Shown piece after piece: positions 3,620 to 12,452 of a stretch of DNA of 64,000 nucleotides; positions within the stretch are counted from its first letter, which is position 1; every line of letters begins with the position of its first letter. The notes below the pieces were generated by a model that worked only from the letters and a program-made list of their open reading frames with translations, had not been told where the DNA came from and made no database searches. The position numbers and the translations under genes are program-made. The DNA comes from an uncultured virus (IMG/VR IMGVR_UViG_3300046678_000325) (lineage: Duplodnaviria; Heunggongvirae; Uroviricota; Caudoviricetes): IMG/VR virus record IMGVR_UViG_3300046678_000325. One strand, given 5' to 3'.

Positions 3620-4023
3620 CAGATGAGCACCGTCCGCTTGATTGGCTCGCCCTTTTCATCGAGCTGCTGTGTAATCCAACACGTCATCGCATACGTGCGG
3701 TTTTCGCTGGTCGGAGTGTCGTAGGGCATCGCTGCATTCTGAGACGAGTCGTACACGATCGGATCGGCAGCAAAGCGGAATCGGTTGTCGTTCTGAAACG
3801 TCGAGATAATTTCACCGACTGTAGTTACAACCTTCTCGTCGTAGTCCATCACGAACGTTCCATTGTTCACTTCAACTCTGAACATCATCCCTCCTTGTGT
3901 TGAAATTTTGCAGGATCGATCGGCACGAGCAAGTAGTAGCCGAGCAGAAAAATGTCGTTGTCCTTCGTACCTTTGACCGTTCCACCGGGATTGTAAACGC
4001 AGCGATGATTCTTCATCACGCAA
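3619..4023 (-). CDS. hypothetical protein (probable start MMFRVEV, about 3888)
   Basis: ORF with GGAGG RBS before the internal ATG. Confidence 0.5.
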   Translation of the reverse strand: MRDEESSLRLQSRWNGQRYEGQRHFSARLLLARADRSCKISTQGGMMFRVEVNNGTFVMDYDEKVVTTVGEIISTFQNDNRFRFAADPIVYDSSQNAAMPYDTPTSENRTYAMTCWITQQLDEKGEPIKRTVLI

Positions 4024-4780: not shown

Positions 4781-5052
4781 GAGCGAGCCTTCGGCGGTTC
4801 GCCTTCACCAATGAAGATCAGATCGAGACTAGGGCGAAAGCCGGGATGAGAGATTTCAAAGTGGGCTTCAACCATCCCCATCTCAGCCTTCTCGGGAAAC
4901 GGCTGTCCACAGTTGTGACAAGCCATGATGAAGTCGTCGCCATGTGAAATTCCATTCTCTTCACACAGGTTCTTCAATACACGCTTCACTTGCTCGTACA
5001 GCTTGATTGCTTCTTCGTTCGTCATACGGCCTCTCTTTCTGAAACGTTGCAC
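4777..5052 (-). CDS. hypothetical C2H2-like Zn-finger protein
   Basis: CHNC...HFEISH; first gene after the promoter at 5092-5121. Confidence 0.55.
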   Translation of the reverse strand: MQRFRKRGRMTNEEAIKLYEQVKRVLKNLCEENGISHGDDFIMACHNCGQPFPEKAEMGMVEAHFEISHPGFRPSLDLIFIGEGEPPKARS

Positions 5053-5091
5053 AGCACCGTGAGCGGGAAGCTGTGGCCTTTGGAGATACGA

Positions 5092-5121
5092 AAGGTACTA
5101 GAGAACCCCCCTAGTCGTCAA
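5092..5121 (-). promoter_or_regulatory. sigma70-type promoter TTGACG-18-TACCTT
   Basis: Hexamers upstream of the minus-strand operon. Confidence 0.5.
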
Positions 5122-5240
5122 GTCGGTGAAACGTCTCCTATGGGCTTGCATCCCGACTCCAAAAAATACCCCCAAATGAAATTTGAAAACGCTTGTTTCT
5201 GGCTCGTACATGCCGACGCCTTCTTCATTCAAACTGAAAA

Positions 5241-5280
5241 TACGGTATATCAGTACGCGATCTACGGTGTATCAGTACGC
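5241..5280. repeat. 18-bp tandem direct repeat TACGGT(A/G)TATCAGTACGC x2
   Basis: 5241-5258 and 5263-5280, one mismatch, 22-bp period. Confidence 0.85.
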
Positions 5281-5519
5281 CCCGGCGGAATACCCCTCGG
5301 TAGGTCGTCCGATTCCTGAAATCCGGTGAATTTCACTTTGTGCCCATTTGCAGGGGTTTTAGTGAAATTGATCGAACGCCTGTTTGCCTCGCAAAGCCGC
5401 ATGGTTACGTGGGTCATGGAATTACATTTCAGGGTCTAGCCCGCATTCCGCTGATGCTTAGGCGATGTGCTGATGTGCCCACGGAGATAGGGGTCTGAGC
5501 AGTGATCCCTGAAACGTTC

Positions 5520-6180
5520 TCAGTCCCTCTAGGCCATTGGTATAACCATGCAGGCACTCCCTCCCCGCTCTAGGTCACTAGCCTGTAATTCGCCATAGGT
5601 TCGGCGCGTATCAGCACTAGGGTGCAGTGGCGATCTAGTAGCAATCTTGGAATGGCCTAGGATTACACTCCCGGACTGAAATACAGGCTAGGGCGGAAGG
5701 GTAATTTAGTGCCCCGAAACCGCTTGATTCAGTGAGGCGCTGAGGAGCGTTCTGCCGCACTAGCTGAGCCTTGTTAGGTCTGACTCTCCCTGCCCCGCCG
5801 ATCGGCCGTAGCGAAGCGCTGAGACGCTGCTAGCAGGCAGTCATTCAGGACGATTCCAGCGGGGATAGCTGAGCCTCCCTCGCGGGCGGGGCGAATGGAT
5901 CAATTTCCAATGCGGGAATGATCGTTTGACGGTAGTGAAATTCTCGGCTACCATCCGCGGCGTAGTCGATAGCTTGAACCGTTGGCAGGCAGTCAACGGC
6001 GGCCGATTTTTCACTAGGTCGCCAATCGTGCCCGAGCCGCAGTAACGGGAACGGCGCAAGAGCTAGGAACGATCATCCGGCGGATACTTGTCGCCTGCGA
6101 TTTCAACAATCGGCGGACGGATGGAAACGGCCTAGCTCGCTGAGCTTGAAATGAGGCGGTTTAGTGAAGCTTCGGCGGAA
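5520..6180 (+). ncRNA. long structured non-coding leader of the plus-strand island (candidate structured RNA)
   Basis: No credible ORF; many perfect 7-11 bp helices, both local and with 8936-9251. Confidence 0.45.
6140..6180 (+). repeat. inverted repeat 1, left arm (pairs with 7442-7482)
   Basis: 41 nt: 37 Watson-Crick, 3 G-U, 1 A-G. Confidence 0.95.
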
Positions 6181-6209
6181 TTCCATTCCGACACTGAGGA
6201 GCTTTCACA

Positions 6210-7406
6210 ATGACCAAGCATCATGGCACTGCGACTGATTGGCGGGCAGGCAGTAAGCGGCGGATGATCGCCGAGCTTGCTGAGCTTGGAAGGACAAAGC
6301 GCGAGACTTACGCCGCACTGCGGCCGATGGTCGAAGGACAAAGCGCGCCGATGATCTTTTCAGCGAACGTCAATGGTCGCCGCACTCCTAAGCCGATTTC
6401 GTTGCAGCTTGTTGAGCTGAAAAACGAAATTGGTCGGGTCTTCGCCCTGCTAGGTCGGGCGGAATCCGCCGCGTGGGAATCGGCCGAGACTGAGCCGAAT
6501 GAAATTCCCGACGCTGAGGATGAGACCGAGAACGAGGAGGATGATGAGACCGAGGAAACGAAATCTCCCAAGGCTATCGGGAAGGATCGCGTTAATTCGG
6601 AGCTAGACCACTTCCTCCGTGAGGTACGGCGCATTCGCACACTGTGCGAACGGCGCGCCGAGACCGGAGCCGCGTTGGATTCAATTTCAATGCGGCCTGC
6701 ACAAGCGGCCGGACGTTTGATCCCTGCGGGGATTCCGGCCGCCGCACTATTGCATTCAATGCTCCTGCACTGGTCGCCGGAAATTCGGCGTAGCGATGCA
6801 GGGGTGCCCGATTTCGATTACACGGCGCTATCCGCTGAAATCATGCGGGATCGTGGAATCGATTCGGCCGGACGACATGAGCTTTTCGGCTACGTGCTCA
6901 CTCTCGCTGAGGAGCGACAGCCGGTTATGTTGATCGGCCCTGCGGGAACGGGAAAATCTCGCCTATGTAAACAGGTCTCGGAGTATTTGGAGATTCCCTA
7001 CGGGGAAACGCCGATGACTCCGGGCGCTACACGGGGAGATTTACTCGGTCGGATGACTGCAAACCCGAATGAGCCGTTTATCCTCAGCCAATTCGCCGAA
7101 ATCTATTCCGGCGGAGGGGTTTTCAATTTCGAGGAAATCGACGCGGCCGATCCGGGAATGCTGCTAGTCCTGAACAATGCACTAGCCGGAGATGAGCTTT
7201 TCAATTCGGCGAATGGTCAGCGCTACGGACGAAACGCTGATTTCGTAGCGATGGCGACTGCGAACACGTTCGGAATCGGGGCTAATCGGGAATTCACCGG
7301 CCGCGAAAAGCTTGACGCTGCAACGATCGATCGTTGGCGGATGGGTCGCGTTTTCCTGCCGCTGGACGAAACGATTGAAGAGGGTTTGCTCTACGGAACC
7401 CTGTAG
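6210..7406 (+). CDS. AAA+ ATPase, MoxR/CbbQ/CobS-like
   Basis: Walker A GPAGTGKS, Walker B FNFEEID, sensor ATANTFG, arginine finger LDAATIDRW; GAGGAG RBS. Confidence 0.9.
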   Translation: MTKHHGTATDWRAGSKRRMIAELAELGRTKRETYAALRPMVEGQSAPMIFSANVNGRRTPKPISLQLVELKNEIGRVFALLGRAESAAWESAETEPNEIPDAEDETENEEDDETEETKSPKAIGKDRVNSELDHFLREVRRIRTLCERRAETGAALDSISMRPAQAAGRLIPAGIPAAALLHSMLLHWSPEIRRSDAGVPDFDYTALSAEIMRDRGIDSAGRHELFGYVLTLAEERQPVMLIGPAGTGKSRLCKQVSEYLEIPYGETPMTPGATRGDLLGRMTANPNEPFILSQFAEIYSGGGVFNFEEIDAADPGMLLVLNNALAGDELFNSANGQRYGRNADFVAMATANTFGIGANREFTGREKLDAATIDRWRMGRVFLPLDETIEEGLLYGTL

Positions 7407-7441
7407 GACGCACTGAGGAGCGTTTTACGGCGCTTCTGACC

Positions 7442-7482
7442 TTCCGCCGGAGCTTCACTAAGCCGCCGCGTTTCAAGCTCAG
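7442..7482 (+). repeat. inverted repeat 1, right arm
   Basis: Reverse complement of 6140-6180. Confidence 0.95.
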
Positions 7483-7520
7483 AGAGTGTGACTAGGCAAC
7501 GGGGATGACTTCGCCCGGAT
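7482..7520 (+). repeat. inverted repeat 2, left arm (pairs with 8566-8603)
   Basis: 7482-7504 is a perfect 23-bp complement of 8581-8603; extends inward with G-U pairs, one mismatch and a bulge. Confidence 0.95.
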
Positions 7521-7551
7521 AGCTAAACCTTCCGATAGGAGAATTTCCACA

Positions 7552-8562
7552 ATGCCTAGAGCAATGACTGCTAGATACGCGGGCCGTTGCAGAACGTGCG
7601 GGAAATCGATCAATCCGGGCGATGCAATTATCTACGCCGGGAAACGAAATTCCCGCCATGCGGCTTGCGTCGGAGGATCGAACGCGGGAACGAGTGAAAT
7701 TCCCACTAGCTCGTCCTCCGAAAAAAGCGGCGTCGGACACTTCACGATCGATTGGGCGGATTTGAAAGATTCCGTTGTAGCATCGATTGAAAAGAAGTCT
7801 ACGCCGAAATTCCACGTTTCCAAGAACGGGAAAACGTGGGCGCACGTAACGCAAGAGGAATCAGAGTCATTCCGTGGCTACTCACTGACCCAAGCAAAAG
7901 ATTGGGCAGTGAATGGTTATGAGTCAGACTCATTGGCGGGAATTTCGGATTTCGCCCCGCCAATCCGCGAAAAGCGGCGATTTGTTCACACTGACGACGG
8001 GGACGAAATCGACCTATCCGCAGCTTGGGCAGGAGATGACGATTTCATGACTCAGTGGACAAAGCGGGATGCAATTCCGGGAATAGCGATTGAGTTTTTC
8101 GTCAATCTCTATGCCGGGGTTTCAGCCGCCGTAGTGAACAAATACATTCATTGGATCGCGCAAGCGATTTTCGCTATTGAAGCGGCCGGGATCGATCCGG
8201 AAATTTCAATGGGCATTCACAGTGAATGGAATTGGTCGCGCGCGCATAAAAGCGGATATACGAAAGTCCGCGTAAAGCGTGAGGGCGAAACAGTAGATTC
8301 CACTTATTGGTCAGCGATGGTAAGTCCTGCCGCGTTTCGCACGTTTGGATTCGCTGCAATTATCCTCGCAGCTGATTCGGTCGGATGCCATTCCGATATG
8401 GGAATCGATTCACCGAATCGCACTGATTCTTGGGATGTGAAATTCGATCCCGAGACTCAGACGATCATGGTAATGAGTCCGTGGGATTCTGGGAATTTCC
8501 CTGAAGCGGAGATGACCGAAAAACTACGGGCGGCGATCGAAGTTCTGAAAAAAGGAAACTAA
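7552..8562 (+). CDS. N-terminal Zn-ribbon plus VWA/CobT-like partner of the AAA+ ATPase
   Basis: CRTCGKSI...HAAC; C-terminal alpha/beta region; follows a MoxR-type ATPase; AGGAG RBS. Confidence 0.65.
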   Translation: MPRAMTARYAGRCRTCGKSINPGDAIIYAGKRNSRHAACVGGSNAGTSEIPTSSSSEKSGVGHFTIDWADLKDSVVASIEKKSTPKFHVSKNGKTWAHVTQEESESFRGYSLTQAKDWAVNGYESDSLAGISDFAPPIREKRRFVHTDDGDEIDLSAAWAGDDDFMTQWTKRDAIPGIAIEFFVNLYAGVSAAVVNKYIHWIAQAIFAIEAAGIDPEISMGIHSEWNWSRAHKSGYTKVRVKREGETVDSTYWSAMVSPAAFRTFGFAAIILAADSVGCHSDMGIDSPNRTDSWDVKFDPETQTIMVMSPWDSGNFPEAEMTEKLRAAIEVLKKGN

Positions 8563-8565
8563 CCG

Positions 8566-8603
8566 ATTCGGGGAAGTTAGCCCCGTTGCCTAGTCACACT
8601 CTC
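8566..8603 (+). repeat. inverted repeat 2, right arm
   Basis: Reverse complement of 7482-7520. Confidence 0.95.
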
Positions 8604-8606
8604 CCG

Positions 8607-8632
8607 AATTTGTTTAGGTAAGCTCGCGGCGG
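8607..8632 (+). repeat. inverted repeat 3, left arm (pairs with 8909-8934)
   Basis: 26 nt: 24 Watson-Crick + 2 G-U. Confidence 0.95.
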
Positions 8633-8660
8633 AATTTCCTTCCGAACGAAAGGCATTCCA

Positions 8661-8876
8661 ATGATCCGCGAGCTTGATACCCGCACTGACACTTTCGTAA
8701 CCGTTTCCCTACTTTGGGACGATGAGACGGACGAAACCCTGATCGAACTTTGCAGCGAGGAGAACGAGGAAATTTTTCCCGTTCCGCACGAGGACGCTGC
8801 AAAGGCATTCCATCATCCGTTCGTATACGCGGCGGGAATTTCCGCCCGGCGGGAACGTATCCCGTCGTCCGTGTAA
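8661..8876 (+). CDS. small acidic hypothetical protein
   Basis: GAAAGG RBS; motif VSLLWD...AFHHPFVYA. Confidence 0.75.
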   Translation: MIRELDTRTDTFVTVSLLWDDETDETLIELCSEENEEIFPVPHEDAAKAFHHPFVYAAGISARRERIPSSV

Positions 8877-8908
8877 TTCCGGCGTAGCTAGCAGCTAGTC
8901 CAATCCTG

Positions 8909-8934
8909 CCGCCGCGAGCTTACCTAAGCGAATT
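8909..8934 (+). repeat. inverted repeat 3, right arm
   Basis: Reverse complement of 8607-8632. Confidence 0.95.
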
Positions 8935-8935
8935 T

Positions 8936-9340
8936 CAAGCGAGACGATTACAAGGCAATGGCCGACCCGATTGGCCTAAAACGGGAGGACTACCCCTGCG
9001 CAAAAACAGGTGTAATTCCAAGTGTAATTCGGCCGGGAATTCCTCGCGCGGGCGAAACCGGAATTCTCGAGAATTTCAGACCAACCATTCCCATCCGCAT
9101 TCGCTTTGAAACTTGTAATTCGGCTCTGACACGGCCTTTGCCTAGAAATTTGGGCCGGGATCGGTACACCGCTTTCATTTGGCTGAGAGTCACAGGCCCA
9201 TAACGGGCGAAGGTCAAGTGAGGGGGTACAAACTTGACGCTCTGTAATCCTCTGTACCGATCCCAGCTTGCTCCGGCATGTGCGAGACCGGAGCGGGCCT
9301 CAGTATGCCTCTCATGGCCTTACGGCGTCAAGTTTGAGCT
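8936..9340 (+). ncRNA. structured non-coding trailer of the plus-strand island
   Basis: Pairs with 5659-6140 in nested order; also two crossing perfect 12-bp helices. Confidence 0.45.
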
Positions 9341-9531
9341 GAAGTAACGTCACCACGAAGCCACAGGAGCGCGTTTAAGACCAAGGGAGGGGTGAGCCGG
9401 TATTCCCAGCATCCCCCTTCCTCAGATCGGCTTACACGGCGTCGGCGCGAGATTCGGCGCGGCGCGGAAACCGACCCCCAACGAGTGAGACCCGCCGGAG
9501 CGGGCCTCGGGTAGCGCGGATGAAATTTCAG

Positions 9532-9945
9532 CTAGGGCTGGTCGTTGTCGTGCAAGTCGGAGCGCTGAGCGAGCCACGGCGCGGAGTGAGTCGGGAGAAG
9601 GTCGCGCCTCCACTGCTTGATCCGATCGTGCTCCTTGGTCGTCTGCTCGATGAAATCTTTGAGGCTCTTGTAGTGACCACAGATCGCCTTGGGATCGTGA
9701 GCGAAGATCGCCGCGATGAAAATTCCCCACTCGTCCCAAGTCGCGGCCTTCTCGGGGAGTCGCTGCATCATGTAGCTGCTCGACCCGGAGATACGCACCA
9801 CGTAGCCCCGCTCCCGCTTGCGTGATCCCTCGATGCCGACATTCGTGTAACCCTGAAACTTCTCGCCCGGATCGGCCAGGTAGCAGCCGCTCGGCACTGC
9901 GGAAAGAACGTCCTGAAGCGTCAGCGTGTCGGAATGAATCTTCAT
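9532..9945 (-). CDS. hypothetical early protein
   Basis: Own promoter, conserved leader motif and RBS. Confidence 0.75.
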   Translation of the reverse strand: MKIHSDTLTLQDVLSAVPSGCYLADPGEKFQGYTNVGIEGSRKRERGYVVRISGSSSYMMQRLPEKAATWDEWGIFIAAIFAHDPKAICGHYKSLKDFIEQTTKEHDRIKQWRRDLLPTHSAPWLAQRSDLHDNDQP

Positions 9946-9947
9946 GC

Positions 9948-9968
9948 GAATTTCCTTTCGTCGGAAGG
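9948..9968 (-). promoter_or_regulatory. start-associated repeat CCTTCCGACGAAAGGAAATTC
   Basis: Identical 21-mers at 9948-9968, 11456-11476 and 12420-12440, each 2 nt before an ATG. Confidence 0.85.
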
Positions 9969-11453: not shown

Positions 11454-11602
11454 TGGAATTTCCTTTCGTCGGAAGGGATTTGCGAGTGACGCCTTGCCGC
11501 CCTGACACTACTTTGCCGTCATGCCCAAACGGTAGCTACGTCACTCGCGCGGACGATCGGTGCAATCGGTGTTTCACGTTGAAACCGATTCCCGCTGAGA
11601 CC

Positions 11603-12417: not shown

Positions 12418-12452
12418 GAGAATTTCCTTTCGTCGGAAGGTACTGTGCGACC

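Follow-up and report, generated by a model that had tools for sequence, protein, structure and literature searches.

Three gene-enclosing helices and no conserved flank-to-flank trunk in a plus-strand gene island of an uncultured tailed phage

We analysed a DNA stretch of 64,000 nucleotides (hereafter the window) from an uncultured virus of the Caudoviricetes (IMG/VR record IMGVR_UViG_3300046678_000325), focusing on a plus-strand gene island, its flanks and the inverted repeats that enclose its genes. The window comes from the genome of a tailed phage and includes genes for a DNA polymerase, helicases, a primase, a UvsX-like recombinase, and baseplate, tail fibre and capsid proteins. Almost all of these genes lie on the minus strand, and the sole sizeable plus-strand island consists of three open reading frames (ORF1 to ORF3). 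ORF1 (6210..7406, plus strand) encodes a 398-amino-acid AAA_5 (CobS-like) ATPase (Pfam PF07728, 7.8e-13; phrog_249, 4.6e-31), ORF2 (7552..8562, plus strand) a 336-amino-acid DUF7192 protein (Pfam PF23822, 7e-10), and ORF3 (8661..8876, plus strand) a 71-amino-acid protein of no known family. ORF1 is CobS-like by its sequence, but an identification as the cobaltochelatase CobS itself is not supported, as its weak match to TIGR01650 (CobS) scored 26 bits, far under the curated equivalog cut-off of 558.55, with only the AAA_5 domain and the phrog_249 match remaining.

All three genes lie in loops, each closed by a long helix that the gene's own two flanks form. Stem 1 (6135-6180/7442-7487, plus strand) encloses ORF1 and comprises 40 Watson-Crick pairs, 3 G:U pairs and 2 mismatches over 45 nt. 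Stem 2 (7482-7515/8570-8603, plus strand) encloses ORF2 with 31 Watson-Crick pairs, 1 G:U pair and 2 mismatches over 34 nt, and stem 3 (8606-8632/8909-8935, plus strand) encloses ORF3 with 24 Watson-Crick and 2 G:U pairs over 26-27 nt. The stems are 46, 34 and 27 nt long, their scores (39.0, 28.5 and 25.5, respectively) all lie over the maximum of 20.5 reached in 40 shuffles, and their duplex energies are -82.3, -62.0 and -48.0 kcal/mol. They are the only inverted repeats with at least 89 % complementarity among the 14 listed for the 64-kb window. In a partition-function fold of a reduced construct, from which the gene-loop interiors had been removed, the gene stems had pairing probabilities of 0.86-0.98 (0.87 for stem 1 and 0.98 for stem 3). 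The stems abut one another, stems 1 and 2 sharing 5 nt and stems 2 and 3 being separated by 2-3 nt. Every loop holds one ORF together with its ribosome-binding site, and the 5' arms end 28-36 nt ahead of the start codons.

We searched for relatives of the island with ORF1 and obtained 28 loci (cited below by L numbers) from soil-type metagenomes and IMG/VR, with 40-69 % amino-acid identity; ORF1 had no relative in the genome collection contigs, and ORF2 alone had none in the viral contigs. ORF2, which had tblastn matches in 25 loci, followed ORF1 in 25 of the 25 loci with sequence there, and ORF3 was kept in L001, L003, L005, L006, L021 and L022. Almost all loci with sufficient flanking sequence showed the same array layout; their arm sequences are quite different, and their helices are 23-61 nt long. 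A helix above all 100 shuffles bracketed ORF1 in 17 of the 21 loci with both flanks. Eight loci formed a subfamily with alignable arms, in which 233 of 272 cells (86 %) were canonical pairs compared to 34-47 % with slid partners, and 23 of 38 pairs showed a double-sided change compared to 4-8 with slid partners. Across 55 distinct helices, a set that includes at least four not bracketing a gene and that draws on related, non-independent loci, strand-neutral scoring gave 76 G:U pairs on the plus strand, 33 A:C mismatches and 63 other mismatches. Such an excess of sense-strand G:U pairs suggests that the pairing takes place in RNA of that strand. The gene stems are real features of the locus and unique in the window; they are conserved through compensating changes and prefer G:U pairs in the sense orientation.

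The number of loops varied among the relatives. In L003 a fourth loop separates ORF2 from ORF3, and L008, L016, L020, L023 and L028 have extra loops ahead of ORF1, each extra loop holding one small ORF; these ORFs are diverse and mostly unrelated. A small loop is nested within the ORF1 loop in L023 and L028. The units stand head to tail, 0-4 nt apart or with a short overlap. The neighbouring stems of L006 (3126-5998) and L021 overlap by about 28 nt, and a 61-nt helix of L006 (4338-4398/5453-5513) shares sequence with arms of both neighbouring stems. These overlapping arms suggest, from the sequence, that units arose by duplication.

The island is set between long flanks, which the preliminary description had taken to be non-coding. 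This is largely the case, since neither 5053-6209 nor 8877-9421 contains a convincing gene. The ORFs of the 5' flank (5053-6209) are only 51-109 amino acids long, and the two that were tested had no Pfam match. The 3' flank (8877-9421) has one ORF of 81 amino acids (8958-9203), also with no Pfam match, whose sole match in a relative was weak and read through a stop codon in L003. Consensus scans of 4900-9600 were uninformative for promoters (2 promoter-like sites versus 2.5 expected) and for terminators (2 terminator-like sites versus 6.0 expected). A tRNA scan found none, and blastn of 5000-9500 against deposited phages gave no match.

The preliminary description further held that the two flanks pair with each other over about 3.5 kb in seven short helices, forming a long imperfect trunk that carries the three gene loops. 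The seven pairs do exist as described, all being perfectly Watson-Crick paired and strictly nested (two were also checked by eye). Their 5' arms (5659-5667, 5781-5788, 5891-5897, 5914-5920, 5936-5946, 6107-6113 and 6128-6132; span 5659..6132, plus strand) are exact complements of 3' arms spanning 8960..9251 on the same strand. As isolated duplexes, the helices are worth only -8.1 to -13.0 kcal/mol each. Two of the 3' arms (9185-9192 and 9243-9251) sit within the loop of a local stem-loop (9151-9168/9253-9270).

The trunk gained little from comparison with controls. RNAduplex of 5400-6135 against 8935-9400 gave -305.8 kcal/mol, compared to -294.2 +/- 9.8 kcal/mol for dinucleotide shuffles (z -1.19), and 13 of 117 shuffles were as good. 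A duplex energy no better than that of shuffles is the very outcome that the preliminary description had named as refuting the trunk. The best gapless helices between the flanks scored 12.0 and 11.5 and were equalled by 36 and 50 of 100 shuffles, respectively. The best local duplex between 50x50-nt windows had an energy of -44.4 kcal/mol versus -42.6 +/- 3.7 kcal/mol in real controls from the same genome, 17 of 62 of which were as good. In the reduced fold, trunk helices 1-3, 6 and 7 had pairing probabilities of at most 0.014, and the 116 flank-to-flank pairs lay within the range of shuffled flanks (73.5 +/- 41, range 8-165; 3 of 19 reached 116). When folded alone, the 5' flank did not surpass shuffles on either strand (z -0.65 and -0.88), and the 3' flank was somewhat better (z -2.05, 1 of 100 shuffles as good) by virtue of local stem-loops.

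Exact complementary matches of at least 7 nt between the flanks were more numerous than in shuffles (29 versus 17.4 +/- 4.1; 4 of 300 shuffles reached 29). However, 61 of 504 real 466-nt pieces of the same genome equalled this count, and same-strand matches of the same length numbered 28. Same-strand matches were as frequent as complementary ones because iterated words fill both flanks. The window contains 89 copies of TGTAATT (3.4 expected), 130 of GAAATTC (13.3 expected) and 165 of TGAAATT; all three are found genome-wide, in both orientations and also inside genes. By a hand count, 10 of the 29 complementary matches carry iterated words, including those of 9, 10 and 11 bp, and removal of the word-bearing matches leaves 19, near the shuffle expectation. 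As a separate observation on these words, AATT occurs 532 times in the window compared to 178 expected from base composition, with a preference, relative to AATT, for G at -2 and C at +2. TGTAATT and its complement are mostly confined to a single reading frame, and GAATTTC, the complement of GAAATTC, prefers two frames, whereas GAAATTC prefers none.

The relatives told the same story. None of the eight with both flanks had a flank-to-flank helix near gene-stem quality, the best scores being 12-16 with 2-69 of 100 shuffles as good. In the window and these eight relatives, the nested chain of matches was larger than the parallel chain in 4 of 9, smaller in 4 of 9 and tied in 1 of 9. The closest relative is represented by two loci, L002 and L003, with 11 differences across their overlap of 3488 positions. 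The window flanks share with it only a 19-nt exact match at 5312-5330, an 87-nt block of 77 % identity before the array (5985-6069; L003 754-840) and a 62-nt block of 82 % after it (8957-9018; L003 4328-4388). The latter block overlaps the start of the 81-amino-acid ORF, but the two reading frames part ways after about 18 codons, and it more closely resembles a nucleic-acid element than protein-coding sequence. A search of the window flanks for remnants of the relatives' loop ORFs found none (best E 0.037). Contigs from four soil or rhizosphere DNA runs contained near-identical copies of 5100-9400, and such copies occur in several runs of different studies; the listed differences from the window cluster in ORF1 and ORF2, with others at 5134 and 5244, and the otherwise unchanged flanks and stems leave no natural variation usable for a pairing test. 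No RNA run was among the public runs listed as containing the stretch.

Taken over duplex energy, real-sequence controls, fold and relatives, an imperfect trunk of 5-11 bp helices joining the flanks was not borne out. The part of the preliminary description that placed the ORFs in the loops of a structured RNA held in that each gene is closed by its own long helix, but the proposed trunk uniting the flanks is unsupported. We consider it probable that the seven trunk helices are chance complementarities, raised in number by words repeated in both orientations, and that the structure under selection is the array of three gene-looping RNA helices, which we read as processing or stabilising stems. 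The lesson for method is that lists of nested 5-11 bp complementarities look structured wherever short words recur in both orientations; such lists beat dinucleotide shuffles, but not real-sequence or same-strand controls.

Several observations weigh against this interpretation. The best nested chain of flank matches comprised 71 bp, compared to 41.2 +/- 9.0 bp in shuffles, none of 300 of which reached it, and to 47.0 +/- 9.6 bp (maximum 83) in the 504 real 466-nt pieces, 6 of which did. Complementary matches chained in non-nested order gave 40 bp, and chains of direct matches 52 and 43 bp. The nested chain is thus mildly unusual in length, on the high side (about 1 %), and neither unique nor conserved. 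Trunk helices 4 and 5 had pairing probabilities of about 0.5 in the reduced fold, and the energy gained by the trunk was -28.4 kcal/mol versus -18.9 +/- 5.7 kcal/mol, with 1 of 19 shuffles as good. Four of the 21 loci missed the test for a helix bracketing ORF1; L015 had a mis-set start, L019 a truncated flank, and L023 an outer arm beyond the 150-nt search range owing to an inserted extra loop, and the miss in L004 is unexplained. A:C mismatches are not rare (33 in the 55 helices), and the composition of that set, given above, tempers the G:U excess. No gene for ribonuclease III (RNase III) was found among the window's 58 other ORFs or in the records of four relatives, including a complete 74-kb genome. 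Finally, a candidate outer helix described below is unusual enough that some contact between the 5' and 3' flanks may be possible in this phage.

In the mechanism that we propose, three long-range RNA helices would form in a plus-strand transcript, each looping out one translation unit of ribosome-binding site and ORF, and would act like the stems that flank 16S and 23S rRNA. The double-strand-specific RNase III of the host could cut each helix and release a separate mRNA for each gene, its ends remaining base-paired; alternatively, uncut helices could shield and insulate each cistron. Since no phage RNase III was found, cleavage would need the host enzyme. The gene stems exceed the length of about 20 bp or more that marks an RNase III-type processing stem joining distant segments, and they show the covariation and the tolerance of sense-strand G:U pairs that mark selection on RNA pairing. 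Co-transcription, cleavage and a stabilising effect are what we infer from these features. The positive finding is a conserved operon family of soil phages whose cistrons are each enclosed by a long-range helix of their own, 24-46 bp long and abutting the next, and among whose members extra single-gene loops come and go. If the helices are cut or read in this way, they would constitute a general phage route to express and stabilise single genes from one transcript, and accessory genes could be added as ready-made units.

The closest known counterpart is the bacterial rRNA operon, in which long-range helices flank 16S and 23S rRNA and are cut by RNase III. There, as here, the sequences before and after a unit pair over more than 1 kb and several helices lie side by side in one transcript, and the phage helices, at 24-46 bp, are long enough for RNase III. 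The phage loops, however, hold protein genes and their ribosome-binding sites instead of rRNA, neighbouring helices stand 0-4 nt apart, the loops change in number and content from relative to relative, and cleavage is here a proposal. The early genes of phage T7 offer a second parallel, with RNase III sites between cistrons and remaining stems that stabilise the products. The proposed processing resembles it in that a polycistronic phage RNA is cut between cistrons, but the T7 sites are local hairpins between genes, as opposed to helices built from the two flanks of one gene. In the icaR mRNA of Staphylococcus aureus, the 3' untranslated region (UTR) reportedly covers the Shine-Dalgarno sequence and blocks translation, whereas in the phage 25-63 nt separate the end of the 5' arm from the start codon, with the ribosome-binding site remaining looped out. 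The likeness to icaR lies in the pairing of two untranslated ends of one bacterial mRNA, the 5'-UTR with the 3'-UTR, as the excerpted text of that study describes it (PMC3868564). In Bacillus subtilis, according to excerpts of the relevant report, RNase III has long-range intramolecular targets at 73 sites on 45 mRNAs, with pairing over more than 100 nt and paired cleavage sites in the same mRNA (PMC11780869). These targets differ from the phage array in being scattered over host mRNAs, and the same excerpts do not describe arrays that bracket every cistron (PMC11780869). Titles and the opening lines of abstracts in the literature yielded no description of arrays of gene-bracketing helices in phage operons, which is not proof of absence.

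A different view of the flanks is that the real trunk is a single outer helix closing a 4.1-kb unit of leader, three gene loops and trailer stem-loop as one domain; we regard this as possible but rather unlikely. The candidate helix (5191-5215/9274-9298, plus strand) is not among the seven trunk pairs and, with its arms read by eye, comprises 18 Watson-Crick pairs, 5 G:U pairs and 2 mismatches over 25 nt. Its duplex energy of -38.4 kcal/mol is near that of stem 3, and its score of 17.5 was reached by 1 of 100 shuffles and by 6 of 286 real controls. When the search was restricted to the 70 nt after an AU-rich box, a restriction picked after the helix had been seen, 4 of 1360 real 70-nt pieces reached this score. 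The 5' arm begins right after this conserved box (5182-5190), a gap of 3 nt between the trailer stem-loop and the 3' arm matches the abutting layout of the array, and the nested loops of L023 and L028 provide a smaller-scale precedent for an outer closure. However, the pairing probability of the outer helix was only 0.07 in the reduced fold, where it competes with alternative registers and with a local hairpin overlapping its 3' arm. In the closest relative (L002 leader with L003 trailer) no outer helix exceeded shuffles, and in the other relatives the best outer helices were those in the 12-16 score range given above, with no counterpart of this one. Covariation is not available for this helix; the other soil and rhizosphere runs carry identical letters there. 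The tentative picture that would follow is a hierarchically closed messenger, with the box marking its 5' end and an outer helix spanning more than 4 kb around a 0.9-kb leader, the gene loops and the trailer. If this doubtful picture were true, the phage would package an entire operon into one closed RNA domain, with single-gene loops nested inside it.

The AU-rich box itself recurs among the relatives. Its copy at 5182..5190 (TTTGAAAAC, plus strand) is the only plus-strand copy of the strict box in the island flanks. The TTTGAAAAC box lies a few to about 30 nt ahead of the first stem in eight relatives and as a variant in L015, and the positions of the form (A/G)ACTTTGAAAAC(T) are L009 163, L011 277, L012 158, L013 2265, L014 279, L015 935, L020 3041, L026 3909 and L027 3912. 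A second copy often stands 120-270 nt farther upstream, but no significant helix follows the upstream copies in L001, L009, L011, L013, L014, L026 and L027, which speaks against the outer helix. The box was considered as a sigma-70 promoter and rejected in this role, as no consistent -10 element was seen by eye at the proper spacing. Two possible roles are a start signal specific to the phage and a site of cleavage.

The trailer stem-loop (9151-9168/9253-9270, plus strand) has an 84-nt loop with no ORF and a score of 14.0 that none of 100 trailer shuffles reached, and it is present in both the minimum-free-energy and centroid folds. It crosses another candidate helix (9225-9241/9324-9340), the two forming either a pseudoknot or alternative folds. 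Inside the leader (5216-6134) no helix exceeded shuffles. The leader carries, as seen by eye, a tandem direct repeat, ACGGT(A/G)TATCAGTACGC, at 5242-5258 and 5264-5280 with a spacing of 22 nt. Its segment 6002-6023, within the conserved leader block, can pair over 22 nt with 6155-6176 in the 5' arm of stem 1, possibly as an alternative fold; this pairing scored 15.0, no better than the mean of long-range shuffles, and no counterpart was seen by eye in L003.

The inverted repeats might instead act in DNA, as recombination sockets or terminal repeats through which single-gene cassettes enter, are exchanged or drop out, or as single-stranded DNA hairpins in replication, which we judge improbable as the main explanation. 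The variation in cassette content among relatives (the extra loops of L003, L008, L016, L020, L023 and L028), the head-to-tail units with 0-4 nt between them, and the overlapping neighbouring arms of L006 and L021, suggestive of unit duplication, would all suit such an element. However, a ratio of 76 sense-strand G:U to 33 A:C is unexpected for a DNA duplex or a strand-neutral element. The arm pairs are private to their gene and unique in the window, unlike transposon ends, and the compensating changes, which keep the pairing while the sequence drifts, are what selection on a helix would yield. A DNA-level role of the repeats can coexist with the RNA function that we favour.

The reading of the preliminary description, in which island and flanks together make up a large ORF-carrying element, either a structured non-coding RNA or something like an intron (group I or II, or giant non-coding RNA), is hardly tenable: the long non-coding flanks, the ORFs in helix-closed loops, which recall group I and II introns and large non-coding RNAs, and the folding of the 3' flank favour it, but Rfam scans run with the ORFs left in gave no match at gathering score in the window and, at E of at most 1 in 5000-9500, only a microRNA family (E 0.16, taken as noise), Pfam found no reverse transcriptase, maturase or homing endonuclease domain in the island, the 5' flank shows no folding beyond that of shuffles, little of either flank is kept even in the closest relative, a conserved catalytic core is missing, and the layout of the island and its neighbourhood is the same in relatives, so that the island is not an insertion.

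Two minor observations concern the setting of the island array, which we continue to regard as a set of single-gene RNA loops. L028 (record G001, 74,373 bp) is a complete genome with direct terminal repeats, and its island lies within the first 9.5 kb, facing the genome end; this position would fit an early-injected, early-expressed region. In addition, a translation-start context, TTCCGAC..(G)AAAGG(A)..ATG, stands ahead of the island genes and of several adjoining minus-strand genes in the window and in relatives. It is found in the window at 6186-6200 (plus strand) and at 9953-9966, 11461-11474 and 12425-12438 (minus strand), and in L001 at 3969-3990 and 5221-5241 (plus strand) and at 8005-8030 and 8871-8892 (minus strand). 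The TTCCGAC start pattern had 6 matches compared to 2.0 expected, and 5 of 100 shuffles reached 6.

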